IMG/VR virus record: IMGVR_UViG_3300030117_004232
Span: 9,969-73,968 of that record
Direction: 5' to 3' (one strand)
Length of the DNA stretch: 64,000 nucleotides
Origin: a virus
Below the pieces are notes generated by a model that did not search any database, had not been told where the DNA came from, and saw only the letters and a list, made by a program, of their open reading frames with translations. How positions within the stretch are numbered: position 1 is the stretch's first letter; every line of letters begins with the position of its first letter. The translations under genes and the position numbers were made by a program. Shown piece after piece: positions 18,001 to 61,553 of the stretch.

Positions 18001-21000
18001 AACTATCGAACATTTACTCAGTCGAGGGCGAGTGTTATCATTTGGCGAAGACAACTATGGGAACTCTACACTGAGGGCGCACGGTTTGATTTCTGACATC
18101 TCCGCAGCCAGTGTAAACGTCAAGGGTGATGCAGCCCCTGATTCTCACATTGTCAAGGAAATTATGCCGGGTGCGCCGGTTGTTGCAGTGACATTGGGTG
18201 GCCCCGGACAAGGTGCCATCAACACCAAAGAAACGTGGCAACCAAGCCCTACTGCAAGATTGGCATGGAATACGCGTCGAGACTGCACGACCCTCATTAC
18301 TGCCTACAATACCAGTACGATTACAGTCAAGGCTCTCAATAACAGAGCAGACGATTTGGCTTCTTGGGGAACCTATTGCTTCCCAAAGATTGGTAGAGTG
18401 TACATCGGATTGAAAGATGATGTTACGGGTAGGATGCGTTACGCTTCGGCGGAATATGCAAGCAAGAATGCAACTACATTCACATTCGATACAGGGGCTG
18501 CCGCTGGAAGAGGAACGGGCCTGTTCCTCGATTTTGACGGAAATGAAGAAGCGCGATTTACAGATTGGTACGCCACAATCATTGCTGAAGCGGATACTTC
18601 TAGCACTGGTTTGGTCGGACTAATGTTATCGATTGACGATAAATTCTCAGAGGAATCAATGTGCAGCGATGGTACCACCATCAATGACCGTTTGTTCCAG
18701 ACACTAGACACTGTCAGTCACGATTACCAATTGGGTAGTCAATATGCGAGTACACGCGCATTGGTCGAAATCCCACTGTTTGAAGAATTTTTCTTTGAGA
18801 ATCACGACAAGGGTGTTTTCCCCGGACCTGACAACAGTATGAAAATTCACATTGATTGTACACATACTGCACACACTTGGGCACCAAACCCAGTTGGGCG
18901 TAGATTTGAAGCCGTATCGCCCAAAGACCCAGAGGTATTTGCTGCGTTTTCATATACGATTGGCAACCAAACGCATCAGCCGGGAACAAAGGTTTCTCAG
19001 CCCTATGATGTGAGTAATCATAGAGTTCACGTAGAAGATTCAGATATATTTCCAATTGCTTCTGCTGCGCCTATTGCAGTGGCTGGAATCAACGGTAGCG
19101 CTCGTTATCGACGTGCCTTCTTGAGTTCAGGAGAGTGGTGCATTTATGTTGCAAAAGACCAGTCTTCTACTGTTTCTTTGGAATTAGCGGGCTCAGCAGG
19201 TGATACTTGGTCAATGTCCAAGAATTTCCTTAGAGACTTGACTGTAGGCGCATTGCTTACTCCTGCACCCGGCTACCAAGACATGAATTATCGGTCGATT
19301 GCGGACAACCCTGAGTTAATTAGTGCGGGTTACGAAGGGCGGCGGTCTTTCTACTATGACCGCTCAAACGCAATGACTCAAGGTGGAAATGTTGACTATG
19401 GACTTCGTCAGTACGTATCGGCTGTAGAATTTAGAGCAGGACCTAAGACAAATCCACATTTAGATAGAATACAAAACAAGCGAGCCCGTTCTAAGGTAGT
19501 CGCCACTACGTCTGGTGGAGGTGGTGTCGTTGCAACCATTACTGTGGAAGATGCGTCACTGTTCCCTACAGATACTCCAAATGCGTTGTATGGTTATCGA
19601 TTGGCTTGGAGAGATACAGGTGGTACGATTCGATATGGTACCTACACTACTCGTAAGCCAAATGCCAACCTCATGACAGTAACTTCTACAGAGACAACTC
19701 ACCCTGCTGTCGGGGATGAAGTATACATTGAGAGCCTATACGCACTGTCTGCATCGACTTGGCCCCGCACAATTGATGGTTTCCTCAGCCGAGCATGGGC
19801 ATATCCCTACGCACCCGGTGGACTACGTGATGGAGATACTGTATGGATGAATATGCACTACACCAATCCACACGCCATGGAAGGCTTGTTCTGTAAAAGT
19901 AGAGGTACTCTGGACGAAGGTAAGGTGTGGACAGGATTTAATGGGGGCATGGGTGCGTTACATGCAACCAATCCGAGAGATAGTATCCCACTGGAAAATT
20001 TCTTGATTGGCAATACTTGTGTCGAAACGGCTCAGAACTTTGTTCAACACGTCAACAAATCAGTTGAACTTCATCATACTGCAATGGGCGTCGCTTCACC
20101 AGCGGATAAAAGCCCGATGGTTGCATATATCGACCCATACCAAAGTACAGACGAATTTACCCGAGTTTTACTGTATGATGTGGCCCACGACCGGGAGTTC
20201 ATCGCCTTCCAAGACCTTTGGATGCAAGTACAATCGAGTGCAGATGCAACCAAGATTGGGGCAGCACCAAGTCACACTGGTGGTGTAATTCTCAACACCG
20301 ATGCTAATTCTGGCTCGTGGTTGGATGTTCCTGCTGGGTTTGCCAGCCAAAGTCCATATCTGAACAGTACAACCCAATCCGATTTCATCGAAACGGCTTA
20401 CTGCCACGCTAGTACTTGGAACGCTTCTAACACAAGCGCTGGAGGTGTCAAAGGTCTGGGTATACATCGACCACAAATCCAAACTTCTTCCTTTGGTGTC
20501 TATGCTCCTAGAACAAATCCAGCAGTAGTTGATTCAGCATCTGCTGCGACTAAACACGATGAGGTTGTCAAGGACCAACGAGAGCAATCTACATTCTTTG
20601 ATACGCCTGATGGTACTCGTTGCATACCTGCTTTCCTTGCACTAAAAGGTATTCGGGCTACTACGTTGGATTTAACCAACCACAAAGAAAATCATTCTTC
20701 ACACGGGCGAGGACTCAATAGTCACCCACACTGGACACAAATGGATTTCACTCGTAGACTGACGATTGATTTTGGTGAAGTTTCACTTAGAGATGGAGTA
20801 ACGGATATTGAGTCTGCTGCTAGAGAAGTTGTACGCATGATTAACCAAGCGGGTGCGAAGAATGGGCGGACGCACGCTCGCCTTCATTCCGACTTTTCGG
20901 CTACTGCATCGACACATGACCCTGCTCCTTTTTGGGCCCCTGAACAAGCGTTTGCTAGTCTTGATAGAGGAACACACATGGGGTATGTTCGTGCGCATCT

Positions 21001-24000
21001 CGGTCGTGTATCTATCGATTCATCAGACCCAGAAAACAAAGGGTTCAGTATTGTTATTCACAGTACTGTCCCCGGTGCATCCGGTCGAAACTTCTGTACT
21101 TGGCTTGATAACTCCAAGGCTCAGAGCCCATATCGTCCAGAATACATGATTGGGCACGGCGGGCGCTTCCGTAATTACTGGTGCCAACCAGATGAGGTAA
21201 CTGGGGAAAACATGCACCCAGCACCCATGCCAATCAACAGGCATGGTCGCCCATTTGCTCCAATTACAACTCTCAAGGAGTTCTTGCCACCTGAAGAGTT
21301 GAATGACCAAATGATGAACAATTTAGACCTCGGGCCAGAAACACAGGCAACTGCATTGTTTGCATCTACCAACGAAGAGTCCAGCACAGGGCGTAATTAC
21401 AATTCTGTTGCAAACGAATCCTTTGAGACAAAGAGTCCGGCTGGTACTCTGATTGACGGACTACGCGTTGGTACGAAGGCCAAGGCTCGCATCAACTTTG
21501 GCGGCATGACCATGGCCGGTATTCCCGGCTGGGCACCAGATGCTGGTAAGTGGGGCTTTGGTAGAGATGGAGAGAATCCAAGATTCGATGCAATTTATGG
21601 TGTAGGTGTCAATAATGCTACAATCAAGGCTACTTCTTTGAATTTAGACAATAGTGCTGACAGATATATTCCATTAGATGATATGCAGAGTCAAAACATT
21701 GGGGATGGAAATTTATACGGTATTCGCTTTGTTGACCATCGTGGTGATTCCCACACCATCCGTATGGTGTATCGTCAGTATGGAGAAAGATTCGCTAATG
21801 ATTTAACTACTCTACCGCCATCAATCGATGATGAACTTATCATTCATTTCGATGACAGAGATGTAGCACAAGGTGGGTTCACCATTGGGCAACACATGGC
21901 TGGAACAGGTGAGGTTACGGGCAACATGACCAATGGTACGGCCTCTTCTTGGAAAGGTAACTTGTGGAACAATTACCCAGCGCGTAATGTCGGGATTAGA
22001 GTTTCAACATCGATAACTGGAAGCGGTAGTGCAAGACAACTCACTCTAACACTGCAAGACCCGTATCAGAGTGGCGGAAATTTCAGCCATCCAGATGTGC
22101 TTGGTTATTTGGGCTTCCCAAAGAAAGACGGCATGATTCAACTGTCAGATGATGGCGGGCATCTTGGTCTGACTTTCTCCTATAGTAGTCGGACAACTGG
22201 GGGTGTCGGTAGCACTGTTCGATTCTATGGCGTTGTAGGTGGGTTTGCTGGATATGACGAAACTGATGCTAACGAAGATTGGATTCTCAGTCCACGCATC
22301 AATTTCACAAGTGTACTGACCGATGAAGTGATTGCTGCTGCTGTAGAGTATGCGATGAAGTTAGACAACGTCAACAGTGATGACTTGAATGTTACTAGTT
22401 TCGATTGCACCTCTATGTTTGCACCTGATGGTCGCACATTGAAAGAGTGGGGTGTAAGCCCAACTGCTATTCGTATCAGAACCAAGTCAGATGCATCTAT
22501 TCCCCTTAACAAATTGTTTGAGGTTAGCAGAGAGAAAGACTGGGGCTTGGTTGAAGGTGCCAGTAGCGACACTGCTGTTGGTAGTCATCACACAGGCGGT
22601 CTGTCAAACTCTGAGCGCGATGCCGGAACTCGACTGGATGTAGGTTACATCCCTGAAACTGTATTGCACATTACAACGAAGTATAGAGGGTCCAATGCTA
22701 ATACTGCAACTCCTGTACTTGTAGACAATCAGAACAATGTGGTCGATACAGGACTTTGGCGAAGAAATCTTCGTGGTGAAAATTACACAGATGTCGCTGG
22801 GGACCACATTATTCCGCGAGTAGACAGCCCGATGGTTAAGATTGACTCTGATACATCGACTACTCTCGTATTGGCAAGCAATGAGTATGTATTCTTAGCA
22901 GGTGCACCTTCGACGACGGCTGGTACAGGTCGATGGGGTGAGCGATTTACACTTTGGTTCGGGTCTGAGGAGTATGGTACTGTCGCAGGTACAGATGAGG
23001 ATACGCTCACCTTTGCAGCAAATGATGGTACTTCATCGGGCTTTACCAATGGAAACATTGACCAAAATGACATCTTGATTAAGAATGGCGGCCCTGTTCA
23101 CAAAGCCAAGCAAATAGATGGTATTCGTAGAGCCGGTAGTAAACTGTCAAGTCCATTTCTTTACTTCCGTGGTGGAAGAGATAGTGCTGACCACTGGGTT
23201 CCATTGTTCTTCGGAGGTGGTTTCTCTGGTGTTGTTATGGACATCAATGATGGCACGGAAAATGATTACTCGGACTTCTATACCCATCCTTACGCTGCTG
23301 GACCCACTGGTGCATGTGGATTGCAAAATGCAGGCGAAATGTCAACCGCGTTTTCTCTACTAGACACGAATGCAATGCTGGCCATGTTCCCCGGAACACC
23401 ATACCTTGACCAGCACAAAGGTCAGAATAATCCACCTTTCTTCAACCAAGATGCCATCTTACCGTTTGATATGACCAAGGGTGGTAATGCTAAGGTAACT
23501 GGGGTAGATTATACAGATGGGACCAACACTGTAACTGTAACTGTACCCAGCCCAATTGTCATCAAATTTGCTAGTGCAAATGCTAGATACTCCGCAGCAC
23601 CAAGCGCAGAACATACAACTTACATGATTTTCGGCCCCGGCCAATCATTCCCTCACAACTACATGTCTCAAGAGCCACAAGGTTCTGCGATGGTGACCGC
23701 AGGCAACGGGTATAGTGCTGTACCTATTGCTCGCACAGCAGGTGGACTTGCGTTTTTACCAAATGAGTTGGCTAATGGTTCACCAACTCATGCAGGTTTC
23801 AATACAGGTGGTGCAGAAGCGCACCTACCTATGAGTACTTTCTATCAGAAAAATAACGTGAGTGGCTTCAATTATGTCATGAATTGGGAACCAGCGAAAG
23901 GCTTTCCAAATCATCGTTCTTTGAGTGGTGCTAGTTCCGTAGGATATTCCAATGTGTTTAGTGACTCTCGATTCTTTACAGGCAAGGCGCCCGGTACGTC

Positions 24001-27000
24001 TAACTTACCAGTTCATGCACATCCGATGAATCAACCAATCAGTCTTTACAATTCAGGTACACCAAGAGAAGTCGGGACATCAAATTGGTCGACTACACGG
24101 TTTTCTTCAGTGATTTGGCACATGGATGGAGGCTATCACCCCGGTGGACATTTCTTTGATAATGCGGTGCGCAAAAATCCAATGAATGTTGTGGCAAACG
24201 CTGTTTTGTCTGGAAATACAACTAACCAGCATAACCCTGCCGCATTTAGGGTAGCAGGACTGTTGGCAACGGCTTACAACGCGGCATTCACCTCACCTCA
24301 CGAAGAACAACTGTGTGATGATAACATTGTTTTGGTCGATGCCACTAGAGTGCAGAATGCAGAAGAACTAGGTACAATCCTATCAGCAGCAATCAATACA
24401 TTCCCCGGTTCTTATGGACTCAAAGCGATTGGTGGTACATTTATGCCATCGTTCCAAACCGGCACAAATCAAGACCGATATGGTTGGCACAAACTGATTA
24501 TCGACCACAGTAGTGGATATGTTCCTCACAACTCTACCACACCTGCATCTATTACAGTGAAAACTACGATTCCTTCGACTTTACCACAGTATGGTTGGAT
24601 TCGGATGTCAAGTGGAACTAAGGCTGCCGTGGCTGCCTATTCGTCATATACGGGTAAGACATTCACTCTGGCTGTAAATTCAGTTATGTCTTCTTCTTCA
24701 GGTAATGAGACAAATGCCTACGAGCCAAATACTGCCGCAGCAATTACAGATACTGATTTCAATGTGGAAGATGGAGAAGTGTATGTATGGACAAAGGCAG
24801 GTACACGAAGACACAACAACGTGTCTGGTACTACTTCGCGCGACCACTTATGTCAAGTTCACTTCAATGGACTGATTGATGCTGTAGATAGAACAAAGCC
24901 CATAGGCGCAGTTGGTTGGCACGGCGAAGCATATTCTTACTTCAATTCTTACCTAGTTGATTCAGCCTATCCTGCCGGACTTGGTGCTTGGCATCCCTTC
25001 CTCGGATTCAGTCCTTATGGTGCTGCTGAAACATGCTTGGGTAGTTCAACACCAGTAGGGGTTGCAGACACTCCAACAGCACTTGCCTCAGAGTTTTGTG
25101 TAAATGGCCTATCTTCTCGACACTTGGTAGCGGTTAGTCGAGAATGTGCTTTGTCCTTGGTAGCATTTTCTGACAGAGATGGTATATTTATGCGAGGAGA
25201 CAGATTATCAGCAAAATTGGGGTCTGACATTTCCTACGCCGGTACGGTAATGAATTTGAGTGGGTTTAGCAATTCAAGATTTGAAGCGCCCGCGACAGGT
25301 GGACCTCATATTGAAGCACATTTCCACACTGGATTTGCTCGACCTACACTAGCAGCAGATTATCCTGCTACTAGTGCTGTTCCAACTGACGCACAACTTC
25401 ACCGCGCCATGCAATCAGGTGATATGGTACACGGAACCACTTGCCAATATCCAACAGGAGACTTGTTTTGGGATGAAAGCGTCGTCAAGTCAAACAACTT
25501 CCATGAAGATTTTTCAGATTACGGCGTCGAGTGTATGGGGGCCACAGCCCACACAGATTACTTGAATACCGCAGTGACTGCTGCTCAGCCTCACCCCGGT
25601 TTATACGGTTACTACTCAAAGCGCTCTGCTGCACGTAATTTCCTACCAGAACATATTGTATGGAAGCGTATGGATGGTGGAAATCTAACGATGCCTGCTC
25701 TTAATGCTCGTGGTTTAGGACAAATGCCACTTTTCTACGCAAAGGATAGTGGGGCATGGAAGTTAAATGGAGAAAAAATTCTTGGCAACGTAAGGTTTTC
25801 ATTTGAGACAACAAATGCTTCTATGTTCCCGATTATACAAGCACAAGAACTAGCACATCCGCAGTTAGCAGAGCAGTACCCAAGAGAAATTCAACAGGCT
25901 TTACTAATTCCAAATGAACAAGAGCAATTCAAGAGTGTACAAGTCATTGATGATACAGGTCAAGAACATCGCCTTGAAGGTGGTTCTCCACTCGGTACAG
26001 TCATACTTGATTTCCGCCATGTTAGTGATAGAGAAATAGAAGGATTGGCGCCTGCTTTGGCTGGAAGCGGCGTATCTCCCAATATGAAGATTGGATTACC
26101 AAACCCAGATGAAATACCGGGCAATGTCATTGTCCGTTCTGGGTTTGACCGAATCCAAGGCTATCAGAATGAAACAATGGGGTCTGGTGGGCTTCAGCAT
26201 CCTTCACAGCCAAACCAACAAATTATTGATTTGTTCAAAAACACGAATGCAGGCCCCCGGTTGTGGCCTTTTTGGGAAAATAACGGATGGGAACACATTA
26301 GTCAAGATAGTGTAGATGTTTCCCAACTCAAGAATATACACCGATTGGATTATCCAGCATCTACAAGTAACGGGTGGGAGGATTCCACTGGAAATGCACC
26401 TTTGCAAACTGCCTATGAGCCCCATGACCGAAGTTTGTATTTCCATGTAACAAGAATGGGCATATCCTCTACCCATCGATATTCTAATGACGAGTTGACT
26501 TTCAGTAGTTACAGTGGTACAACAATTACGGTGGGTTCAGCCCCGGAAGCCACGACTTGGAAAATCGAAAGTGAAAAAAGTGGTGGGCGATGGTTCCTAC
26601 GAGTCTATGACCCTACGACCAACAAAGGTGTAATTGCCAGTTACACAAATACGTCTAGTAGTACCTTTACTGGTGTGGTTTATTCTCCTGATTTTGCTGA
26701 GTTTGTCGAAGGTAAGACTGGTTTGAAAGTCGTGCCTTCTTATTACATGCCTGCTGGTACTACTCGATTCTTTGCATCTCGTCGTTTGCGAGACCACTGC
26801 GAGGTTAGCGGCGCCAGTCCAGATGCAGCGCAAATTGATTGGTTTGCTTTCCATAGTACTTTGCCTGCGGACACAGCCGCTACAGAAAATGTCAGTGACA
26901 ATCCGTGGTATACTCACTTTACAGAGAGGGGATTAACTCCTATGCCTATCCCGCGTATGGGCCATCATTACGTAACGCCTACAATGGCTATTTTGCCCGG

Positions 27001-30000
27001 TCACTACGCGCATCCTGCATACCAACGAGTGTACGATTTGCACCATGCATGTAGAAGTTCCAATCACAAGCCTATGGTTGATGAATTATTGGGCCTAAAG
27101 GCTGCAACAAGGGCTGCCAATGAAACAAGCGGCGTGCTGGTCAATCATCCTAGTGCTGGGACTTACGCTGTGGGAACAACTGCTATTGCAGTGGATACAG
27201 TAGATGCTACGACTAAATTCTCAATTGGTGACCGAGTCTATGACAGTGTAGGGACTGAACTAGGATTTGTAGAAGCAGTCGGGGCTAACCTCGTTACCTT
27301 GGCCTCTCCGGGTATACCTGTCACCATTGCCAACAACGCTGCTCTGTTTATGAGTACGGCGACAACACTTACCCGAGGTATTGGATGGAATCCAGCAGCG
27401 TGGTTCTCAACACCTACAGCCACCTATGGTCCGTCAGATATTCATGGCGGTGCGTTTACTCTGATGACTGAAACCAAGGTCAAGTATGATGGATATGGAA
27501 TCGCAGCGTCTGCGGGAACTCCCGGTAATACAAATGCAGCCGGTGGGCACAGTCTTGTTTTGGAAGCAGGCTCGACATATACCCTCAATCATCATTTCCC
27601 TGACCCATTGGAAGTGGGCGCGTATCAAATTATCATTCAGCCCAATGTATTCGCACAGCAATTTAGTGGATTTCATGTAAATCATGCAACCGAAAATAAA
27701 GCCCCGTCTGAAAGTGGAACTAAAGTTACAGAATTGACTGGTCAGCAAGTAAACACGGTGATTGCAGTTGAGCAAGATACAGCCACAAATGGTGCTTACA
27801 CGCTGATTTTAGCAGAAGCGATGATGGCAGATGTGCGTGGCTGTGAGGTCATTGTAAACGAAGTAATGTTGGATATTGACCCTGATGTCGGTAGTCAGTT
27901 TACGTGCTTACCGCCCATGGCTCTGTATAATCCTCTAGGTGTTCAAGAAACAGCATCTGCACCATTTACACGACGGAGTTTACCTTACCGACCGGGTATG
28001 TTCATTAGTTCTACGCCGGGTAGAACTTTGACGATTCCTTGGTGGGGTATGCTGCACAAAGACGGATTGACAGAGGGGCTTATCCAAGGGGATGGACTGA
28101 GTGTGACCGCAGGTGGTAGTGGTTACACAGGTGCCACCAACGTAGCAGTGGGCGGAGGAAGTGGCACTGGTCTTACAGTCAATACCACTGTGAGCACAGG
28201 TGCAGTTACCGCAGTTGCTATCCATACGGCTGGAACAGGCTATCGACTTGGAGATACACTTACCATTAGCGGAGGTGGGAGTGATGCTACACTTAGTGTA
28301 GATAGAATCAGTTCAACGGGGTGGAGGCACCTAGAATGGCACAAGCCAGACAATTACTACGAATTCTGTCGAGCATCTTATGGGTGCGTCGGTGCACAAT
28401 TGACCTTGGCTGGCTACCCCACCTCTTACATGGACATCTATGCCAAGTATCGGAACAACCGCTCAGCCAACCCAACTTGTGTTGTACTTTCATTGAGTTC
28501 TGGCGGCAAGACGATTACGGTGGACAACAATGACTTATTCCCTTCCAGACCACACTATGGAGAGCAGTTAGAATACACCAAGAATGGTATTCGCTTTACT
28601 GCAACTTACAACAATCGCACAGGTACGCTTGATTATGCTACACTGGGTGTATCGACTATTTTCCAAGGGGTTGAAGGAAGTGCTGATTTCTGGGCAAACT
28701 TGGCCGCTAATCAGGTACTCAAACTTACGCGCCCATACGATACACACCCCTCTGACAGTATCTATCTGGAATCCGATAGTAGCATTGTTACCAGACTTAT
28801 GGAGAAGCCTTTAGAGATACACAAAGGGAGTCGTGATACGAACAGTTTGCATCTACCTGATGCATATTTGTGTATGTGGCATCCCAACCTTGGTCGCCCA
28901 TTCACATGGTATAGTGATACTGCTACTGGTGGTAGTCGCAACTTCTACACAGCGGCTGGTGCAGCAGACACTCCGGTTGACCAAAAGCCATACAATCACA
29001 TTCCTGAGCACTTTGAAACCATCCACTATCACGATTTCAATTATGCAGCGTCGAAGGGGCCATTTGGATTGGCTATGCGATGGATTGTACCACCTGCTGC
29101 TGGCACAGCGCCAACCAACTCAAATGATGGCATGACATATACTGCGGCTTTGATTGATGCGGATGCAAACCTTGAGCATCAAGGTGGCACGTCTGGTTCG
29201 GACAAGTACAACTTTGCTGGCTTTTGGCCTAGTGGTAGTCGTGGTGGGCCCGGTGTCAGTCGGCTGGAAATGTACGCAGAAGCCTTGGCAGGCTGGGGTG
29301 GCGAAAGTTATGGCATGACTGTTACGACTTACACAGATAGCACAGGCATTGCATCTGCATCAAAGCCAAACAACTTGAACGATGGATTCGGCTATCGGTT
29401 TGGTGTAGGCCAAGCCCGAAACCGACCGCGTTGGGCACCTTATATTCGCGGTTGGTTGGAAGTTGCAAATAGCAATGCTCTACTGGGTTACTATCACGGT
29501 CCACTTATCCAACAAGATAACAAGACAAACGGATGGGATTATGTTGGTGCAGACGGATTGGCTGATGTGAGCCTAACCGCACTCTACGTGGGTATTTTGG
29601 AAAGAATCACACAAGTAAGTTCACTGATGAATCAAGACCAGTATGGTCGAAAGGTGCGCTATAGTGATGGTAGGCGGCATACTGCCCCATTCGGCTGTCC
29701 TGTCCGCACATTGCGCAATGCCTCAACTGTACGTCGGTTGTATCCGGGCGATGATACAGGAAAGGGTGTGACAGAACTCGCCAATGCACATCGTTACTAC
29801 ATTGTTGACTGGTGGGGCAATACCCGTGGTGAAGATGTCAGACGTTTCCCTGTACGTGGATTCGGTATTCGGCCATCTTGGGACCCCGAAGATGCTTATG
29901 CAGACACCAACGTCACTCATCGACCCAAGGATGGTAGTGCGGCGGGCTCAGGGCTTCTGTTCAATGGTGATTATTCAGACAAGTATAGCGGTAACAACAA

Positions 30001-31270
30001 TTACGTCAGTAACACCGCATCTGGTAATATCAATGGTGGTGTTGATTGGTTTAACCCAGCCAGTTCACTGCGTGTGGGTGACCGTGGTGATGGACGTGGT
30101 TGCCGATGGCCGACTGTGTTTAACGAAAGTCTACTTATGGCCGTCAGTGAAACCCACGATGCCTCTGGACTTGTGTTGTCTCACAGCACAGCAGAGCCTG
30201 CCTTTGGACAAGGACTCATCCGACCCAGTAACTTGGTTTTGCAAGATGGAGAAGTTGAAAGAGGTATCAGTGACCGAGTCGATTTGAATTCCGATGATGG
30301 ATTGCTGCGACCAAGTGCATCCGTAGGCGAAGGCTTTGAGACAGTGACTGCGGATACTCGTGGTGCTGAGCCGGTTTCCAGAGATGACTTCAGATTAGGA
30401 TTAGATGTAGATACGTTGGCTGAACTGAATGATGGGACTTCAAGAGAGTACGTGGTTATGTCCACAGAGGCTGCGAGTTTACACACAGACCGTGAAGTCG
30501 GTCAACGGACCAATATCAGAGGAGCATACAATGTCGCATCTCGCACTCTTACCGATTTGGATATGACTGCGCTTACCTTTGCAGCACAGCCTGTGGCTGG
30601 AATCATAAAGCACTCTAATGCACACGCTATGTGGTCATTGGGCGGAACATACGTCATAGATTGGAGCGTATATTCTGGCGTACTCAACGACAAGGGTTGG
30701 GGTAAGGCCGGTGCTTCTTCGTCATCCAATCCATATCAGGATTCAAACCACGACCCTACTGTTCAGGCTACGAACACAACTGATTCGACAATACAATTCT
30801 TGTATCGCCCACAACAAGTGTTAGATTACAAGCATTCGCAGATGTTTAGACCCTACATCACACTCAACGGTCCACAGGCTGGGGCCAATTTTTACAAGGC
30901 GACAGCAGGAGGGAAATACGGCTTGTTTACCAGTGATGTACCCAGTGCTCGTACAGGGACGCCCAGTTCGCCTCCATACGCGCCCGTGTACACCATGGTG
31001 CCAACCTCTAGTACCACCGTGCCCGATAGCATGGGACCAAAGATTCAGGGTGTGGATGTTACGGGATACAACAAGGCCGACATCCGCAGCCCTGTAGCAC
31101 GCATGCTAATGAGTGAGAACACACTAGAACATTTCAGGTCTGACGCGAGCAGAACAGATGGTACTGGTGAAGGTGATTACACTGTTCAGCCAAGGCACAG
31201 TCAAACTTTGCACCCGAAGGGTAGCGATGGCGATGCATCTTATAACACAGGAGACCATAGCGGGGAGTGA
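15011..31270 (+). CDS. Giant (5,419 aa) virion/tail protein with N-terminal LamG-like domain and repeated beta modules
   Basis: Uninterrupted 16.2-kb ORF; FTLETWF, FRGTIEAVHL and GLWRFEE LamG-like motifs; Thr/Gly/Ser-rich. Likely start is ATG 15020. Confidence 0.8.
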   Translation: MFDMTIMIDPGYALKFNGITDGVLIPASQHTLHGTDTQDDKQLPSALSSFTLETWFIPDSGGSVFEYENIMRLTVGTPSSPAPAQFEINLKNIAAGTIESHVLTSAKPVYGIDGSFTHWDGTLFPHPALEEHNSFLATDAGSNDLTALNEGHRELLNVTVVFNRKYIVMYVNGDIVAAKEFDEDHEVVLTPSRMFLGGRGGEFRGTIEAVHLSRGSKDSGKADFAPIKSDDTIGLWRFEEPIEPISLITTTPSISASTGASSSINIGATAAQALIDELSGQSGLTAINFTTTSPWTDMGQYSVKVHTATSFATRTIPKVPYNILVNPLGYTSTTGKATNKAPERLRLMAIDASAGTITVESIHLDFASNSTDGRRGALQAHDAGRFVVITGDCIVDGGNGNEYQPQGSGTQFSHRQGQVVIDESRFENHGLMFSMTMANRDVPENKFSAYTTNPGSGFLMGHSGRHTLNHVKSHPFMGILPVPSDYIVDKKIDATADVISATFESQYSDIKDTVPPNSIVSAFSTHGPVNIKPTIHTSFVTRVCENGMSDISDSSRGLLAVGGPGFNPIPFALKALNSPDALNPTGSVAEHLIPSSESRIAILNVPSLSTYNYAPFVQIHYNAIDHTGAAFTTCAASRITGTSNATTVTVQSIKSFGKDGETFPANELYIGTTPASTAQKATNTVTLHHGTKQLRFSASTDSAFQSADVADAVVRRLIGGPSLMVTKTVPDVSTIVTGSTSILDLIHTDLGTNPLAVYAPGGIIEFDIPDNFPFNDGDLEGDSSEGVVAEEVLDFSLTPAAYLPLHSSDSPQTTPRLISTAKTELTGQNSVFNRIIVKQNFNPLGLSENGDLLTANTSTGRSRSTGVFINNGGGYSSSTTGAMTVDGNNATHHIKTGDILYKLDGTVVGTVTGVTSTSVTASAGTSSAVVDNEELFTSPPSPTRGNTNQSTAVHEIFDIIEHTSHNGKARLIVQPSDRTRFSQGSRLEDVAFGGNSATIEHLLSRGRVLSFGEDNYGNSTLRAHGLISDISAASVNVKGDAAPDSHIVKEIMPGAPVVAVTLGGPGQGAINTKETWQPSPTARLAWNTRRDCTTLITAYNTSTITVKALNNRADDLASWGTYCFPKIGRVYIGLKDDVTGRMRYASAEYASKNATTFTFDTGAAAGRGTGLFLDFDGNEEARFTDWYATIIAEADTSSTGLVGLMLSIDDKFSEESMCSDGTTINDRLFQTLDTVSHDYQLGSQYASTRALVEIPLFEEFFFENHDKGVFPGPDNSMKIHIDCTHTAHTWAPNPVGRRFEAVSPKDPEVFAAFSYTIGNQTHQPGTKVSQPYDVSNHRVHVEDSDIFPIASAAPIAVAGINGSARYRRAFLSSGEWCIYVAKDQSSTVSLELAGSAGDTWSMSKNFLRDLTVGALLTPAPGYQDMNYRSIADNPELISAGYEGRRSFYYDRSNAMTQGGNVDYGLRQYVSAVEFRAGPKTNPHLDRIQNKRARSKVVATTSGGGGVVATITVEDASLFPTDTPNALYGYRLAWRDTGGTIRYGTYTTRKPNANLMTVTSTETTHPAVGDEVYIESLYALSASTWPRTIDGFLSRAWAYPYAPGGLRDGDTVWMNMHYTNPHAMEGLFCKSRGTLDEGKVWTGFNGGMGALHATNPRDSIPLENFLIGNTCVETAQNFVQHVNKSVELHHTAMGVASPADKSPMVAYIDPYQSTDEFTRVLLYDVAHDREFIAFQDLWMQVQSSADATKIGAAPSHTGGVILNTDANSGSWLDVPAGFASQSPYLNSTTQSDFIETAYCHASTWNASNTSAGGVKGLGIHRPQIQTSSFGVYAPRTNPAVVDSASAATKHDEVVKDQREQSTFFDTPDGTRCIPAFLALKGIRATTLDLTNHKENHSSHGRGLNSHPHWTQMDFTRRLTIDFGEVSLRDGVTDIESAAREVVRMINQAGAKNGRTHARLHSDFSATASTHDPAPFWAPEQAFASLDRGTHMGYVRAHLGRVSIDSSDPENKGFSIVIHSTVPGASGRNFCTWLDNSKAQSPYRPEYMIGHGGRFRNYWCQPDEVTGENMHPAPMPINRHGRPFAPITTLKEFLPPEELNDQMMNNLDLGPETQATALFASTNEESSTGRNYNSVANESFETKSPAGTLIDGLRVGTKAKARINFGGMTMAGIPGWAPDAGKWGFGRDGENPRFDAIYGVGVNNATIKATSLNLDNSADRYIPLDDMQSQNIGDGNLYGIRFVDHRGDSHTIRMVYRQYGERFANDLTTLPPSIDDELIIHFDDRDVAQGGFTIGQHMAGTGEVTGNMTNGTASSWKGNLWNNYPARNVGIRVSTSITGSGSARQLTLTLQDPYQSGGNFSHPDVLGYLGFPKKDGMIQLSDDGGHLGLTFSYSSRTTGGVGSTVRFYGVVGGFAGYDETDANEDWILSPRINFTSVLTDEVIAAAVEYAMKLDNVNSDDLNVTSFDCTSMFAPDGRTLKEWGVSPTAIRIRTKSDASIPLNKLFEVSREKDWGLVEGASSDTAVGSHHTGGLSNSERDAGTRLDVGYIPETVLHITTKYRGSNANTATPVLVDNQNNVVDTGLWRRNLRGENYTDVAGDHIIPRVDSPMVKIDSDTSTTLVLASNEYVFLAGAPSTTAGTGRWGERFTLWFGSEEYGTVAGTDEDTLTFAANDGTSSGFTNGNIDQNDILIKNGGPVHKAKQIDGIRRAGSKLSSPFLYFRGGRDSADHWVPLFFGGGFSGVVMDINDGTENDYSDFYTHPYAAGPTGACGLQNAGEMSTAFSLLDTNAMLAMFPGTPYLDQHKGQNNPPFFNQDAILPFDMTKGGNAKVTGVDYTDGTNTVTVTVPSPIVIKFASANARYSAAPSAEHTTYMIFGPGQSFPHNYMSQEPQGSAMVTAGNGYSAVPIARTAGGLAFLPNELANGSPTHAGFNTGGAEAHLPMSTFYQKNNVSGFNYVMNWEPAKGFPNHRSLSGASSVGYSNVFSDSRFFTGKAPGTSNLPVHAHPMNQPISLYNSGTPREVGTSNWSTTRFSSVIWHMDGGYHPGGHFFDNAVRKNPMNVVANAVLSGNTTNQHNPAAFRVAGLLATAYNAAFTSPHEEQLCDDNIVLVDATRVQNAEELGTILSAAINTFPGSYGLKAIGGTFMPSFQTGTNQDRYGWHKLIIDHSSGYVPHNSTTPASITVKTTIPSTLPQYGWIRMSSGTKAAVAAYSSYTGKTFTLAVNSVMSSSSGNETNAYEPNTAAAITDTDFNVEDGEVYVWTKAGTRRHNNVSGTTSRDHLCQVHFNGLIDAVDRTKPIGAVGWHGEAYSYFNSYLVDSAYPAGLGAWHPFLGFSPYGAAETCLGSSTPVGVADTPTALASEFCVNGLSSRHLVAVSRECALSLVAFSDRDGIFMRGDRLSAKLGSDISYAGTVMNLSGFSNSRFEAPATGGPHIEAHFHTGFARPTLAADYPATSAVPTDAQLHRAMQSGDMVHGTTCQYPTGDLFWDESVVKSNNFHEDFSDYGVECMGATAHTDYLNTAVTAAQPHPGLYGYYSKRSAARNFLPEHIVWKRMDGGNLTMPALNARGLGQMPLFYAKDSGAWKLNGEKILGNVRFSFETTNASMFPIIQAQELAHPQLAEQYPREIQQALLIPNEQEQFKSVQVIDDTGQEHRLEGGSPLGTVILDFRHVSDREIEGLAPALAGSGVSPNMKIGLPNPDEIPGNVIVRSGFDRIQGYQNETMGSGGLQHPSQPNQQIIDLFKNTNAGPRLWPFWENNGWEHISQDSVDVSQLKNIHRLDYPASTSNGWEDSTGNAPLQTAYEPHDRSLYFHVTRMGISSTHRYSNDELTFSSYSGTTITVGSAPEATTWKIESEKSGGRWFLRVYDPTTNKGVIASYTNTSSSTFTGVVYSPDFAEFVEGKTGLKVVPSYYMPAGTTRFFASRRLRDHCEVSGASPDAAQIDWFAFHSTLPADTAATENVSDNPWYTHFTERGLTPMPIPRMGHHYVTPTMAILPGHYAHPAYQRVYDLHHACRSSNHKPMVDELLGLKAATRAANETSGVLVNHPSAGTYAVGTTAIAVDTVDATTKFSIGDRVYDSVGTELGFVEAVGANLVTLASPGIPVTIANNAALFMSTATTLTRGIGWNPAAWFSTPTATYGPSDIHGGAFTLMTETKVKYDGYGIAASAGTPGNTNAAGGHSLVLEAGSTYTLNHHFPDPLEVGAYQIIIQPNVFAQQFSGFHVNHATENKAPSESGTKVTELTGQQVNTVIAVEQDTATNGAYTLILAEAMMADVRGCEVIVNEVMLDIDPDVGSQFTCLPPMALYNPLGVQETASAPFTRRSLPYRPGMFISSTPGRTLTIPWWGMLHKDGLTEGLIQGDGLSVTAGGSGYTGATNVAVGGGSGTGLTVNTTVSTGAVTAVAIHTAGTGYRLGDTLTISGGGSDATLSVDRISSTGWRHLEWHKPDNYYEFCRASYGCVGAQLTLAGYPTSYMDIYAKYRNNRSANPTCVVLSLSSGGKTITVDNNDLFPSRPHYGEQLEYTKNGIRFTATYNNRTGTLDYATLGVSTIFQGVEGSADFWANLAANQVLKLTRPYDTHPSDSIYLESDSSIVTRLMEKPLEIHKGSRDTNSLHLPDAYLCMWHPNLGRPFTWYSDTATGGSRNFYTAAGAADTPVDQKPYNHIPEHFETIHYHDFNYAASKGPFGLAMRWIVPPAAGTAPTNSNDGMTYTAALIDADANLEHQGGTSGSDKYNFAGFWPSGSRGGPGVSRLEMYAEALAGWGGESYGMTVTTYTDSTGIASASKPNNLNDGFGYRFGVGQARNRPRWAPYIRGWLEVANSNALLGYYHGPLIQQDNKTNGWDYVGADGLADVSLTALYVGILERITQVSSLMNQDQYGRKVRYSDGRRHTAPFGCPVRTLRNASTVRRLYPGDDTGKGVTELANAHRYYIVDWWGNTRGEDVRRFPVRGFGIRPSWDPEDAYADTNVTHRPKDGSAAGSGLLFNGDYSDKYSGNNNYVSNTASGNINGGVDWFNPASSLRVGDRGDGRGCRWPTVFNESLLMAVSETHDASGLVLSHSTAEPAFGQGLIRPSNLVLQDGEVERGISDRVDLNSDDGLLRPSASVGEGFETVTADTRGAEPVSRDDFRLGLDVDTLAELNDGTSREYVVMSTEAASLHTDREVGQRTNIRGAYNVASRTLTDLDMTALTFAAQPVAGIIKHSNAHAMWSLGGTYVIDWSVYSGVLNDKGWGKAGASSSSNPYQDSNHDPTVQATNTTDSTIQFLYRPQQVLDYKHSQMFRPYITLNGPQAGANFYKATAGGKYGLFTSDVPSARTGTPSSPPYAPVYTMVPTSSTTVPDSMGPKIQGVDVTGYNKADIRSPVARMLMSENTLEHFRSDASRTDGTGEGDYTVQPRHSQTLHPKGSDGDASYNTGDHSGE

Positions 31271-31725
31271 GTAGTATGACACCGATGGATAAGGCTTGGT
31301 TGATTTTAAAGCGCCAGACTACACTTGGCGAGTTTCATCCTGACTTTCCTAGTCCTTATGGTGACCATATTATGTATTATCACGGTACCACTGCGCCTCG
31401 TGCTCAACAAATGCTTTCCGATAAACTCCATGCTAATCGTGGAGTTCACGGCACTGGTGCGTATGTAACCAGTGACTACGATAAAGCGAAGAAATATGCT
31501 GATAGGCGTGCATACTCGGACAAAAAACCTCATCTGTGGAATGAGGGAATGCAAGAGTTAGATGAGTCGGCACCAATGGTATTAGGAATACGAGAAAGGG
31601 CGTTCGATGATTTAGGCAAGCCGACCACTGTTATGGGAACAGATGATTGGATGGAGGAGGGTTATTTTCCACAGGGGATTCCTCCTCAGTATTTAACACG
31701 CCTCCCTGAAAATTACAATTGGTGA
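31267..31725 (+). CDS. H-Y-E-type ADP-ribosyltransferase-like protein
   Basis: YYHGT, GTGAYVT, AKKYA and a distal WMEEGYF match the H-Y-E ART fold pattern. Confidence 0.65.
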   Translation: MSSMTPMDKAWLILKRQTTLGEFHPDFPSPYGDHIMYYHGTTAPRAQQMLSDKLHANRGVHGTGAYVTSDYDKAKKYADRRAYSDKKPHLWNEGMQELDESAPMVLGIRERAFDDLGKPTTVMGTDDWMEEGYFPQGIPPQYLTRLPENYNW

Positions 31726-31734: not shown

Positions 31735-33378
31735 ATGGCACTAGGTAAGAACCTCTCAACTGGTCGCTTCAATGCGGCTCAAACTCCAGTTATGAAGCGC
31801 GTGCGCAAGCCTCGATTCGTGGATAATGCTGTGCGGCATGGAGAGTATACCAAAGTGCAGGCTGGGTTCAATGTGGCTGCCCCTACATCAAGTGACTTCC
31901 TTCCTACACATGACCGCAAGTATCTTTTGGCAGAAGAAGACGATACCATCCGTATCCTTCACAATCCTTCTGACGGGCATCAATACACAGGTGCAGTTTA
32001 CACGGACTCGGATAAAGTGACGACATCCAGTACATTGCCGCCTCTATTCGTGGGCGGTGAAGATTCCAAACAATCATTGGTTCCTTCCTCTATTGAAACG
32101 AGTACTAAAGGGACTCGTTACAGAATTGAAAACCTCAAAGGAAGGGACTTGTCTCAAATTGGATTTACTGACAAAACAGTTCACATTGCACAGAAAGTGG
32201 GTGTTGGCCTCCGTACATCAGACCTTGCAATTCGGGTTGCCAAAGGAACAAACAGCGGACTCAATGGGGTGATTGTACCGAATCCTAGCGCTACCTTTGT
32301 CGCCCAAGATTTCTATGGAACTGATGCCGTTACTGCACTACGATACTTGACTCGGCATGACAACTACAATGTGCGAGCAGATTCTTTCGGGAACATCTAC
32401 TATGTCCATCAGAAAAAGCACGGTCGAGAGCACATCATATCGCAAAATATGGTGTCCGATGGTTCTGTCAAAGAAGATAGTGAAAGCGTACCAAATCGAG
32501 TTATCGTGCACGGCAGGTCAAGGGCAAATAACGATGAAAATTCTATCCAAATAGATGACAGAGGAGCGCAAGCCAGTGGTATCAATGAGATACCGGGTGG
32601 CATTCATGCGCCTACCGCAATCACAAAGTCAAGTGCAAGGGCAATAGGGAGGAAATTCCTCTCCATGGCCAAGCAAGCAACTGGGGGAGAAACTCTCCGT
32701 GGTGTCTTTCATGCCTCTACGATTCAACCGGGAGATGTATTGTCTTACAAGGAAATTACAGGTAGCCAAAGGAAAATTGTGTTGTCAACCACACACAATA
32801 TCACAGAGCGAAAATCTGATGTAAGAATCAACAGCGTAGAATCTTCCTTAGAGGACATTATCCAGCGGTTTCAAGAGGGAGATATTGCATCCACGCTCAA
32901 TCAAAATTCAGAGCGAAATAGACAGTTTTCCACGGAGGAGTTTTCGACTGGATTTGGGTTTGATGTCAGAGTCACTTGGCAACTTGATGTAAGAGAAGTC
33001 AAGAATCGACAACAAGGTATGGTCGTTGGTAAAGAGAGGGCCGTAATTCACGGTCGGAAGGAATTGAAATCTACAGGTACACTCATCAACAATGGTAGTG
33101 GTTATGCGATAGGTACAACTTCATACACAGTTGATGGGACAGCAGCCACCAGTTCTTTTGCTGTTGGTGATTGGGTATACAGAGGTAACGGTAACAAACT
33201 GGGGAAGGTCGCTAGTCGGACCACAACCAACGTCACTATCGCTATCGGTGCGCCAGATTTAGTCGGTGACAATGAGGAGTTGTTCCTGTTCCCGAATAAC
33301 AGTATGAAAGAATCCTTAAACAGCCATTTGAAGATTGGAATGAGCAAGGGTAATTACGACAGTAGGAGGCGAGGATGA
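31735..33378 (+). CDS. Baseplate hub/tail tip protein (gp27/Tal-like)
   Basis: ALRYL..YNVRADSFGNIYY, VPNRVIVHG, ARAIGRKFL and IQPGDVL follow the hub pattern. Confidence 0.6.
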   Translation: MALGKNLSTGRFNAAQTPVMKRVRKPRFVDNAVRHGEYTKVQAGFNVAAPTSSDFLPTHDRKYLLAEEDDTIRILHNPSDGHQYTGAVYTDSDKVTTSSTLPPLFVGGEDSKQSLVPSSIETSTKGTRYRIENLKGRDLSQIGFTDKTVHIAQKVGVGLRTSDLAIRVAKGTNSGLNGVIVPNPSATFVAQDFYGTDAVTALRYLTRHDNYNVRADSFGNIYYVHQKKHGREHIISQNMVSDGSVKEDSESVPNRVIVHGRSRANNDENSIQIDDRGAQASGINEIPGGIHAPTAITKSSARAIGRKFLSMAKQATGGETLRGVFHASTIQPGDVLSYKEITGSQRKIVLSTTHNITERKSDVRINSVESSLEDIIQRFQEGDIASTLNQNSERNRQFSTEEFSTGFGFDVRVTWQLDVREVKNRQQGMVVGKERAVIHGRKELKSTGTLINNGSGYAIGTTSYTVDGTAATSSFAVGDWVYRGNGNKLGKVASRTTTNVTIAIGAPDLVGDNEELFLFPNNSMKESLNSHLKIGMSKGNYDSRRRG

Positions 33379-39856: not shown

Positions 39857-40992
39857 TGTGGTTCCCCCTTGAGTGCGCCCGTCTTGTCCCAGTACCGACA
39901 TTTGCCCAAGCACATTCCTTTCTTCCATAGCATGGAACAGGTCTGTGGGTAATCTGTGTTCATGAGTGTGGATACTTGGTAGCGCGTGATGCCCTCGTCA
40001 AAGTCCGCCCACTCAAGCCCTCTGATAAAGTTTACAATGGTCTCAGTGTGCTTGTCGATGTCCTCTTGCTTGGCTCGTTCTAACGGTACGAAATTACGCA
40101 TCCGCTTGGCCAAATACTTGACCAATTGAACCCGCGCATCGTGGCTGGGATTGCCACCCTTTTGGCAAGCCGCAGCATTCAGGCAGGGTAGGATAATGAC
40201 GCCTTCCATGGACACGGTAGGCAAATCGATAGGAGTAGAATTAGGATTGAAAATTTGTGCCCGCTCTTCGGGCTTTTTGACAGGTAATGTGATGCCTGTC
40301 GAACCATAGGAAACCATGCCACTGCGAGGCTGCGCTGCCTTGTTCCAAATATGCTCAAGACCACGTTCAAGGTCGGTAGATGTCAGGGGAATAGACCAGA
40401 ACCCACGCTTGGCATTATACGAGTTTGGAATGCGAATCATCCCACTGGTATCAAATGGTACTGCGGGGTCTGAGCAAAACAAATCTAAGTCACGGACCCA
40501 GTCGTTCACTATCTGCATACCTGCTTCCTTGATAGCGGATAGGTGGGCACCACTTCCGGGGATGTATGCCTTGTCTAGTTCCACCCATACGTGAAAGCCA
40601 CCGCCACTGTACCAGATGGCATGTGATGTATCGTTTGACAGTAGGAACTGGTGGAGTTTACGCGCTTGCTCTAGTGCGACCTCCACCTCTACATCCGGCC
40701 TGTTCTGAGCGCGGAAGTTCTTCGGGTCAAAGTCCAATACGAAATGGCGCACGATAGGAGTCATCAAATCGACTCTACGATTGTGTGGTTGCTGAGTAGC
40801 ACGGTATCCATACACGGTTGTGAATGCATTGGATACTCCATTCTTACCTTGCCAGTATCGCTCAAAGTCCTCAGTGTCTGCCACCAACTTACGGAACCCC
40901 TTACCCTTCTCAGTAGAGAGTTCCATAACTTCGCGTGGGAAATCAAACACCATCTTCATCATAATCACCTCAATTTCGGTATTTCTCGACAA
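39853..40992 (-). CDS. Archaeo-eukaryotic primase, PriS catalytic domain fused to a PriL-like Fe-S domain
   Basis: LDFD, YSGGGFH and D..GMIRIPNS, then PCL..H.AR..YPQTC..GMCLGKC. Confidence 0.85.
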   Translation of the reverse strand: MSRNTEIEVIMMKMVFDFPREVMELSTEKGKGFRKLVADTEDFERYWQGKNGVSNAFTTVYGYRATQQPHNRRVDLMTPIVRHFVLDFDPKNFRAQNRPDVEVEVALEQARKLHQFLLSNDTSHAIWYSGGGFHVWVELDKAYIPGSGAHLSAIKEAGMQIVNDWVRDLDLFCSDPAVPFDTSGMIRIPNSYNAKRGFWSIPLTSTDLERGLEHIWNKAAQPRSGMVSYGSTGITLPVKKPEERAQIFNPNSTPIDLPTVSMEGVIILPCLNAAACQKGGNPSHDARVQLVKYLAKRMRNFVPLERAKQEDIDKHTETIVNFIRGLEWADFDEGITRYQVSTLMNTDYPQTCSMLWKKGMCLGKCRYWDKTGALKGEPQ

Positions 40993-41248
40993 TTTCGTTC
41001 AGAACTCTCAGCAATTCCTCTGTGTCTTGGAAAAGGCGGCGGTTCAGTGTGATGTACATGGGGCCTTCTTCGCCTGATTCCATGTCAGGGGCATATTCGT
41101 ACAGGCTCTTCTGTATGGCTACTGAGTAGTCCTTGCTCTGCCCAAGGTGGTCAAAGGATACGATAGTAGGACGACCAACGATGTGCTTTAGCAGTGTGTC
41201 ACATATCATCGACACCGTGCGCGTTGTCAGTTCTTTTCTCGGCGTCAT
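40970..41248 (-). CDS. Hypothetical protein
   Basis: Coupled ORF (MTPRKEL...); contains QKSLYEY. Confidence 0.6.
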   Translation of the reverse strand: MTPRKELTTRTVSMICDTLLKHIVGRPTIVSFDHLGQSKDYSVAIQKSLYEYAPDMESGEEGPMYITLNRRLFQDTEELLRVLNEIVEKYRN

Positions 41249-42243: not shown

Positions 42244-42476
42244 CAGATGTTCCCCCTGTATTTTCGCTTCTCACTCTTCATGCCCACACGCTCAGTCGTG
42301 TTGACTGGTATCATGTCTGGGTCGAAGTCGGTGAGTTTGCTCTGAGTCTCCGGTACAAAGATGTTCGGGTCGAATTCATCCAGTGTGGTCTGCCTTGTTG
42401 TAATGCCACCGCATTGGCAGTATTGCTTACGCTCAGATATTTCTGGCTTCTTTCTGAATCTGTCAAACCACTTCAT
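42243..42476 (-). CDS. Small protein with two PIP-box-like motifs
   Basis: QTTLDEF and QSKLTDF. Confidence 0.55.
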   Translation of the reverse strand: MKWFDRFRKKPEISERKQYCQCGGITTRQTTLDEFDPNIFVPETQSKLTDFDPDMIPVNTTERVGMKSEKRKYRGNI

Positions 42477-46970: not shown

Positions 46971-47314
46971 TCTTTCAACTCCTCATCTGTTTCTGGTCTG
47001 TAAATTTCAACCATTAAATCAATCCCTTCCTCATCAATTTCCCAACCAAACTCCGCAGGGTCGTAGTTCACTTCTTCGACCTCTTCGTTGATAGCCAGCA
47101 TCAGGTGATGAGGCCAATCCTCGTTCTTGGGTGTGTCTGAAAAGGCGATGGCTTGTGTCATAGTTCCGACACCCCACTCAACGGATTGGATATTCTCTCC
47201 GTCGTCATCCAAGTGTGCTTCAATGTGAATCACCTTGTCTGTCCCACGGACATCAAATGTCCACGGCTCACCTGTCATGAGTCTGTCAAAGATTCCCTGT
47301 TCAAACGGATGCAT
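46967..47314 (-). CDS. Acidic hypothetical protein
   Basis: Coupled ORF, very D/E-rich. Confidence 0.6.
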   Translation of the reverse strand: MHPFEQGIFDRLMTGEPWTFDVRGTDKVIHIEAHLDDDGENIQSVEWGVGTMTQAIAFSDTPKNEDWPHHLMLAINEEVEEVNYDPAEFGWEIDEEGIDLMVEIYRPETDEELKE

Positions 47315-61519: not shown

Positions 61520-61553
61520 GCTGTCTTCATATCTTTCTTGTTTCTATTTAAAG
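61520..61553 (-). promoter_or_regulatory. Repeated TATA-containing element, copy 3
   Basis: Identical to copy 2 over 34 bp; overlaps the stop of the upstream gene. Confidence 0.7.

Follow-up and report, generated by a model that had tools for sequence, protein, structure and literature searches.

We analyzed a window of 64,000 nucleotides (positions 9,969 to 73,968) of the virus record IMGVR_UViG_3300030117_004232, a 74-kb IMG/VR contig that is ~69% complete. Our focus was a gene for a 149-amino-acid (aa) protein (P0001), predicted to be an ADP-ribosyltransferase (ART), that is located immediately downstream of the gene for a giant virion protein and that begins with a short, strongly conserved peptide resembling the PCNA-interacting peptide (PIP) boxes of the presumed archaeal host. 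The window also encodes an S78 prohead protease, an HK97-type capsid protein, a tail-tube-like protein and a LamG virion protein, as well as a family B DNA polymerase (PolB), an RFC-like ATPase, a SNF2 helicase and a thermosome-type chaperonin. The combination of thermosome and SNF2 is a reported signature of group A magroviruses, which are head-tailed viruses whose hosts are assigned to the Marine Group II archaea (Poseidoniales); a sliding clamp and clamp loader are also reported to be magrovirus-encoded (PMC5434244). Judged by gene content, the source virus is a group A magrovirus. The features at the locus, with the evidence for each, are as follows.

15011..31270, plus strand: giant 5419-aa virion protein gene, directly upstream of the ART gene (open reading frame, ORF)
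31240..31245, plus strand: TTATAA, possible archaeal TATA box, the sole copy in 64 kb
31262..31269, plus strand: GGGGAGTG, Shine-Dalgarno-like, overlapping the giant-gene stop codon (sequence; conserved in relatives)
31276..31725, plus strand: ART gene, 149 aa, stop codon included (ORF and translation)
31282..31311, plus strand: amphipathic N-terminal helix PMDKAWLILK, residues 3-12, optional (helix 3-14 in the AlphaFold2, AF2, model)
31312..31365, plus strand: PIP-like peptide RQTTLGEFHPDFPSPYGD, residues 13-30, core Q14-T-T-L17-G-E19-F20 (conservation, match to host tails)
31366..31722, plus strand: predicted ART catalytic domain, residues 31-149 (VIA, structure search, family profile, Pfam on relatives)
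31735..33378, plus strand: 547-aa structural-block gene, downstream border of the ART slot (ORF; conserved neighbour)

The ATG of the ART gene lies 6 nt past the giant-gene stop codon, and the gene ends 9 nt ahead of the 547-aa ORF. The ATG at 31276 is the start common to homologues; an upstream GTG at 31267 is not shared. The 547-aa ORF and its neighbours gave no Pfam or PHROG family match, and these searches gave no support to the label of "hub" that the initial annotation put on that gene.

Fold and predicted activity of the catalytic domain

An ART-like domain had been proposed between the giant gene and the next structural-block gene from the sequence of the window, and this assignment was borne out by profile searches, an AF2 model, VIA and a structure search. 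Direct searches of Pfam, PHROG and PDB sequences with the ART protein returned sub-threshold matches only. Alone, it matched ART-PolyVal (PF18760) over residues 29-77 with 18.5 bits (E 0.0037), missing the gathering cut-off of 31.2 bits, and matched DUF3990 below threshold (E 0.057). When Pfam was applied to 58 relatives, PARP was found in 8, ART-PolyVal in 4 and DUF3990 in 2, and large relatives with many ART repeats (P0057, P0105) exceeded the ART-PolyVal cut-off (5e-22). A family profile compared with PDB sequences matched KptA/Tpt1 (E 2e-4) over the region YHGT...GLKP...V-x-[ST]-D, DarT (1.3e-3) and exotoxin A (1.5e-3), with PARP16 and diphtheria toxin also among the sequences matched.

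The AF2 model of the 149-aa protein (pLDDT 83.9) was compared with 48,161 representative chains in an unbiased structure search, independent of Foldseek, and the best 50 listed were all members of the ART superfamily. In VIA, model residues 31-146 aligned with Tpt1 (8tg4_A) over 89 residues (Z 10.2, rmsd 2.7); Tpt1/KptA NAD-lobe matches overall gave Z 10.0-10.2 and rmsd 2.7-2.8 over 88-89 residues. The C-terminal NAD+ lobe of Tpt1/KptA is both the best structural and the best profile match of the viral protein, and the matches cover only this lobe (chain residues ~91-181). The N-terminal, nucleic-acid-binding lobe of Tpt1, which supplies most of its catalytic tetrad, is absent from the viral ART and a 30-residue leader stands in its place. 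Because this lobe is missing, the viral ART is not a Tpt1, and the match identifies the compact type of NAD lobe only.

The key residues of the domain are H36-G-T, Y63-V-T, R106, E127/E128 and the IPPQYL strand. The NAD-binding His of H36-G37-T38, which aligns with the YHGT of KptA, is kept in 57 of the 58 relatives, and R106 is invariant in the family. In the second motif, A-Y63-V-T65-S, the first column is Tyr in 31/58 and Phe in 20/58, and the [TS] column is kept in 55/58. The pair E127-E128 is located directly ahead of strand 128-131, the penultimate strand, which is the catalytic-Glu site of H-Y-E enzymes. As modelled, the 149-aa protein is an ADP-ribosyltransferase with the fold of the H-Y-E clade; both the fold and a candidate catalytic Glu (E127/E128), on which the initial annotation depended, are thus present. 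Given that this candidate pair occupies the catalytic-Glu position and that an acidic residue or His is found there in most relatives, though not in all, activity is likely for this member, but it is not assured family-wide. The gene product is probably an active, small mono-ADP-ribosyltransferase of the H-Y-E type.

The same fold, with YHGT and Y-x-[ST] motifs, is found in the ART-PolyVal, DUF3990 and PARP-like H-Y-E ARTs of polyvalent proteins. The likeness to ART-PolyVal is weak in direct Pfam matches and clear in the larger multi-repeat relatives, some relatives being fused multi-domain proteins. In contrast to ART-PolyVal, the viral ART is a stand-alone protein of 149 aa that falls below the family cut-off, is set in an archaeal virus, and carries a clade-specific N-terminal peptide that the generic domains lack. 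Polyvalent proteins are fusions of several effector domains, whereas this gene encodes a single one; two-unit fusions do occupy the corresponding slots at loci L039 and L057. For DarT, a nucleic-acid-directed ART, the profile match extends over the whole domain (E 1.3e-3) with a structural Z of 6.0-6.3, and both proteins would act on replicating DNA. However, no DarG-like gene adjoins the viral ART, and its similarity to exotoxin A and cholix toxin, which target proteins, is at least as high (Z ~7).

The leader peptide and its counterparts in host and virus

The translated N-terminus reads MTPMDKAWLILK followed by RQTTLGEF, in exact agreement with the initial annotation. Mean pairwise identity is 75% for residues 13-30, 56% for the helix (residues 3-12) and 29% for the ART domain; relatives that agree on average at 29% of positions in the ART domain agree at 75% in the peptide RQTTLGEFHPDFPSPYG. 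By this comparison, the leader is far more tightly constrained than the enzyme domain. Among the 58 relatives, K12 is invariant, and conservation is 90% or higher at L11, R13, Q14, L17, G18, E19, P25, S26 and G29. When the columns of the PIP motif are considered, Q14 is kept in 56/58, L17 in 57/58, E19 in 57/58, and an aromatic residue or His at position 20 in 57/58, so that QTTLGEF is essentially invariant across the family.

The helix is more variable in its occurrence. It is missing from some members, such as the 217-aa paralogue of L011-L013 and several internal units, and where it is present, 0-5 extra residues separate it from the RQ (LLKQTRQ, LLKQDTRQ, LKMTVEESRQ). The stretch RQT-LGEFH-DFPS--GPV, on the other hand, is found at a fixed 10-12 residues ahead of the first ART strand. 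The unit of helix and motif also occurs internally in longer proteins, and twice in some (P0050, slot genes of L039 and L057). Structural alignments to Tpt1 begin at residue 30, and the AF2 confidence for the motif segment, residues 11-20, is medium (pLDDT ~65).

The helix consensus PMDxAWxLLK was found only within this ART family, and the leader was not seen on clearly unrelated cargo among the leader bearers found. These bearers have either the YHGT domain or divergent forms (RRxHPT; a few without the His) that retain G[IV]R and E-x-x-h-x-x-IPPxxLV. When the leader-trimmed RRxHPT class was compared with the YHGT class, hhalign aligned the last 21 columns only, those of E-x-x-h-x-x-IPPxxLV, with a probability of 83%, and on this basis the two classes are at least partly related. 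A DxAWxhLK leader on unrelated cargo, as the initial annotation had envisaged, was therefore not borne out, since the YHGT domain, or a divergent relative of it, is present in all bearers found. No second leader-bearing gene was found in the window or in the whole 74-kb record, and ART-core homologues outside the clade have no leader.

To compare the peptide with replication enzymes of the presumed host, we obtained Poseidoniales metagenome-assembled genomes (MAGs) via their thermosome gene and compared the termini of their replication enzymes, which were as follows.

FEN1, C-terminus: GGQTSLFDF (3 MAGs)
NAD-dependent DNA ligase, C-terminus: [GDE]QTSLSDF (4 MAGs)
PolD DP2, C-terminus: VYTLDDFL (2 MAGs)
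RNase HII, C-terminus: RNLLDY (4 MAGs)

FEN1 and the NAD-dependent ligase both end in Q-T-S-L-x-D-F right before the stop codon (L104-L106, L119, L121, L122 and L124). A search of the MAGs for the DNA pattern encoding Q-T-[ST]-[LF]-x-[DE]-F gave 10 matches, as compared with 4 in a reversed control, and 7 of these 10 were the FEN1 and ligase tails. A PIP box with one aromatic residue, Q-T-S-L-x-D-F, seems to be typical of the order. Set against the consensus Q-x-x-[LIVM]-x-x-[FYW]-[FYW], the ART peptide fits at Q14, L17 and F20, and has His rather than an aromatic residue at position 8. Since the host FEN1 and ligase tails end at motif position 7, the host PIP box needs only a single aromatic, as in the ART, and the ART Q-T-T-L-G-E-F agrees with the host Q-T-S-L-x-D-F at all constrained positions. 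The resemblance to a PIP box that had been noted at first is thus a close match to the C-terminal PIP boxes of Poseidoniales FEN1 and NAD-ligase, and the comparison supports a PIP-like reading of the leader peptide, as a putative mimic of host PIP boxes.

The motif recurs on other proteins of the virus, two of which belong to its replication module; they are listed here together with the PCNA-fold clamp and the RFC-like clamp loader.

21266..21289, plus strand: TTLKEFLP, residues 2086-2093 of the giant protein, the third copy of TTLxE[FHY]xP
42243..42476, minus strand: 77-aa micro-protein with TRQTTLDEFDPNI and TQSKLTDFDPDM, between PolB and a PD-(D/E)XK nuclease gene (ORF; family of 24)
45056..45817, minus strand: PCNA-fold sliding clamp, 253 aa, adjoining PolB, candidate partner of the motif (AF2, Foldseek)
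47314..48612, minus strand: 432-aa replication-module protein with the C-terminal tail GGNTSLNQFGG (tail kept in relatives ~55% identical)
48907..49845, minus strand: RFC-like clamp-loader ATPase (Pfam AAA, DNA_pol3_delta2, Rad17)

The search pattern Q[TS][TS]L.[DE][FWY] was found twice in the 50 window proteins, as compared with 0.012 occurrences expected, and none of 2000 shuffles reached two. Likewise, TTL.E[FHYW].P was found three times in the window proteins against 0.004 expected. The PIP-like motif is thus also present on an unrelated protein of 77 aa, encoded in the replication module near the PCNA-fold clamp. In the family of this micro-protein (24 relatives), R-Q-x-T-L-x-E is invariant and is followed by F or W, and in some relatives the sequence is QTTLDEFF, QTTLDEFY or QATLDEFY and so conforms to the canonical PIP consensus. 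The profile of the family matches the ART leader of another magrovirus (E 0.006). Besides its two PIP-like motifs, the micro-protein carries a basic tail at its C-terminus, TERVGMKSxKRKYRGNI. It may bind or block the clamp. By description, it resembles the small inhibitors of PCNA that are encoded by mobile elements, for example that of the Thermococcales (PDB 5da7), as these too are very small proteins with PIP-like peptides; the entry 5da7, "monomeric PCNA bound to a small protein inhibitor", was among the structural matches of the viral clamp.

The clamp itself has no Pfam match, and the PCNA_N model of Pfam finds nothing in the record; its AF2 model (pLDDT 92.5) matched archaeal PCNAs in Foldseek with E 1.6e-11 and TM 0.66-0.69. 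The tail of the 432-aa protein, which had no family match, follows a Gly-rich linker and reads [ND]-T-[ST]-L-x-Q-F-G-G, a looser version of the motif that looks like another clamp- or hub-binding tail. In the giant protein, the motif is located within a Pro-rich block that is invariant in group A relatives, and its aromatic position varies among F, Y and H, as in the ART. By inspection, the aromatic positions of ART and giant protein in the same genomes showed no consistent pattern of co-variation. A 97-aa ORF (40970..41263, minus strand), between a 379-aa gene and the nuclease gene, contains IQKSLYEYAPDM (IQTSLYEFDENV in L007), its motif reading QKSLYEYAPDM; this weak lead may be a weaker relative of the motif, and perhaps a structured region rather than a linear motif.

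The ART slot and its upstream signals

Relatives of the ART numbered 37 in a 5.8-billion protein set and 79 in a 1.84-billion representative set, and we examined the genomic context of the family at 71 IMG/VR loci. At ~50 of the 71, the ART gene or genes have an orthologue of the giant gene on one side and one of the 547-aa gene on the other; downstream come the same 119-aa and 393-aa genes and then the thermosome gene in divergent orientation. The number of leader-bearing genes in the slot ranges from one to three, or a single fused gene with two leader-ART units takes their place, and the slot therefore behaves as a variable cassette; such variation was seen at L008, L010, L012, L014, L024, L031, L039, L054 and L057. 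In other virus lineages of ~100 kb (L035, L044, L058 and others), the ART gene is located amid small non-structural genes, for example beside an HMGL-like gene. By its distribution among these sequences, the family is specific to magrovirus-like marine archaeal viruses. No ART homologue was found in four Poseidoniales MAGs, which is not evidence of absence from the hosts, and the magrovirus papers searched make no mention of any ADP-ribosyltransferase. One 9.6-kb contig filed under a Parvibaculum sp. MAG (L084, NZQM01000180.1) has a thermosome 76% identical to the viral copy, and is probably a magrovirus contig mis-binned into a bacterial MAG.

The TTATAA upstream of the ART gene was present as first described, but not at the distance of ~22 nt given for it: the hexamer ends 31 nt before the first base of the start codon. 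This is also the spacing of TTTAAATA ahead of the RFC-like gene. TTTAAATA occurs three times on the minus strand, each time heading a gene block (49876-49883, 55256-55263 and 61545-61552), and one of these copies sits 31 nt ahead of the start of the RFC-like gene. TTATAA occurs once in the window, with ~10 copies expected; this rarity was discounted as evidence for a promoter because the genome avoids palindromes in general. The hexamer is located within the giant ORF, where it encodes S-Y-N of the conserved C-terminus, and is kept in relatives. Given this coding role and the general avoidance of palindromes, TTATAA is a candidate internal promoter of the ART gene, and nothing firmer. As to the avoidance itself, GATC and AGCT are absent from the 64 kb (~250 of each expected), as are 28 of the 64 palindromic hexamers (GATATC, 0 against 19 expected; CTGCAG, 0 against 17). 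This purge probably reflects avoidance of restriction.

Predicted role of the leader

Because the near-invariant N-terminal peptide copies the clamp-binding tails of the presumed host's replication enzymes, the ART is probably aimed at the replication fork. Considering the ART fold together with the pattern of conservation, the occurrence of the motif on unrelated viral proteins and its likeness to host PIP tails, we tentatively favor a reading in which the motif docks the enzyme in trans on a sliding clamp through mimicry of host PIP boxes, with ADP-ribosylation in the vicinity of the replisome. The N-terminal extension consists of two parts, an optional amphipathic helix and a short linear motif that hardly varies, R-Q-T-T-L-G-E-F-H-P-D-F. 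The latter would dock on host PCNA or on the viral PCNA-fold clamp by mimicking the host Q-T-S-L-x-D-F boxes, which would place the ART on replicating DNA, where it would modify a target close to the replisome, which could be a protein or else an end or base of a nucleic acid. A more far-reaching version, about which we are rather doubtful, is that PIP-mimicking TTLxEFxP peptides form a private magrovirus address code for the sliding clamp. Under such a code, no other viral ADP-ribosyltransferase would have been recruited to PCNA before this one, and the ART would shut down host replication, its targets being DNA ends or bases, replisome proteins at host forks, or the PIP tails of host FEN1 and ligase. 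The two-motif micro-protein would occupy or redistribute clamps and, once inside the cell, the giant virion protein would make use of the peptide too.

Several observations count against docking on a clamp. Motif position 7 is His in 8 of the 58 relatives, and the invariant G18 and E19, together with the conserved HPDFPSxYGP tail, exceed the constraint that a PIP box needs. In the AF2 model, beta-bridges at residues 19, 21 and 24 suggest that the peptide may pack in cis on the ART domain. The motif inside the giant virion protein is not explained by a clamp partner. Termini of PolB, the RFC-like protein and the nuclease yielded no canonical PIP box in a regular-expression search, and a complete relative genome contains the ART but no detectable micro-protein. 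The assignment of the host to Poseidoniales is literature-based, and the Poseidoniales thermosome copies that were found are only ~40% identical to that of the virus. Finally, an acidic residue or His is found 2-4 residues before the penultimate strand in most, not all, relatives. On account of the giant-protein copy, the constraint on G18, E19 and the tail, the His substitutions and the beta-bridges, we hold clamp docking as a tentative reading, and the same points leave room for the peptide to act in cis or as a substrate motif, or to bind a partner in the virion.

The first of these alternatives, which we regard as unlikely, is that the peptide is a structural, autoinhibitory or pseudosubstrate segment lying on the ART domain. 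The beta-bridges are isolated and the AF2 confidence for residues 15-30 is medium; they would fit such a segment, as would the alignments to exotoxin A and cholix toxin, which begin at model residues 13-19, the fixed spacing of 10-12 residues before the first ART strand, and the excess of constraint at G18, E19 and the tail. In a variant of this explanation, TTLxEF would be a site that the ART recognizes or modifies, in its own leader as well as in the micro-protein and the giant protein, and possibly in the PIP tails of the host, and the motif in the giant protein would be accounted for if that protein is a substrate. In this explanation, the peptide would have a function other than clamp binding. 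However, no such peptide is needed by ART-core homologues from outside the clade or by any solved ART. In addition, the micro-protein bears the motif without an ART domain, as a textbook PIP box in some lineages, and the likeness to host PIP tails spans six positions.

A second alternative, likewise improbable in our estimation, is that the leader is a signal for incorporation into the virion, which would bind a structural partner shared with the TTLKEFLPP of the giant protein and would require no proteolysis. The ART would then be borne by the particle and delivered with the DNA, as are T4 Alt and the ARTs of polyvalent proteins. This would suit the location of the gene right after the giant gene within the structural block, conserved in ~50 contigs, the motif common to the ART and its neighbouring giant virion protein, and the kinship to ART-PolyVal, whose definition is based on polyvalent proteins from phages and conjugative elements. 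Against it stand the lineages in which the ART gene is located among small non-structural genes, as beside the HMGL-like gene, and the membership of the motif-bearing micro-protein and 432-aa protein in the replication module. No known packaging domain was found in the ART protein, and the possible promoter ahead of the ART gene would fit a gene that is expressed independently.

T4 Alt is a virion-packaged, protease-processed ART, and PIP boxes function without a free N-terminus. The viral ART resembles Alt as a virus-encoded ART that possibly acts at the start of infection, but Alt belongs to the R-S-E clade and is ~70 kDa, the viral protein has H-Y-E motifs and is 17 kDa, and its packaging and cleavage are without support. 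The initial annotation had viewed the helix as a capsid-targeting leader that is cut after L-L-K by the prohead protease, exposing the PIP-like motif at a new N-terminus. Although the virus encodes an S78 prohead protease, Alt is processed in this way and L17-G18-E19 happens to fit a T4-type L-x-E site, we regard this as highly improbable, since the helix is dispensable and is offset from the RQ by 0-5 residues in other members, so that the junction between LLK and R is not conserved, the helix and motif are internal and even doubled in fused proteins, no clearly unrelated cargo carries the helix, the protease/scaffold and the major capsid protein have no comparable site, and a PIP box would need no such exposure. 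A T4-like L-x-E site with cleavage after E19 was rejected as well, because the head proteins lack the motif.

Docking on the sliding clamp, the reading that we favor, has a precedent in a eukaryotic enzyme. Human PARP10 (ARTD10) is described as a mono-ART with a PIP box by which it binds PCNA (PMC9940457, PMC11266678). Both proteins pair an H-Y-type mono-ART with a PCNA-interacting peptide, that of the viral ART being predicted. The analogy is functional: PARP10 is a large multidomain protein with its PIP box far from the catalytic domain, and has no specific sequence relationship to the viral ART.

In the surface ocean, magroviruses rank among the most abundant viruses of archaea, and both the viruses and their hosts are uncultured. 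As the motif can be synthesized as a peptide, it provides a handle for interaction tests in an uncultured virus-host pair, and its recurrence in three or four proteins of the virus points to a small network of interactions, for whose mapping peptides alone would be enough. If the clamp is indeed the partner, a clamp-directed viral ART would represent a new route of host takeover in archaea, a prokaryotic-virus counterpart of the PARP10-PCNA pair.

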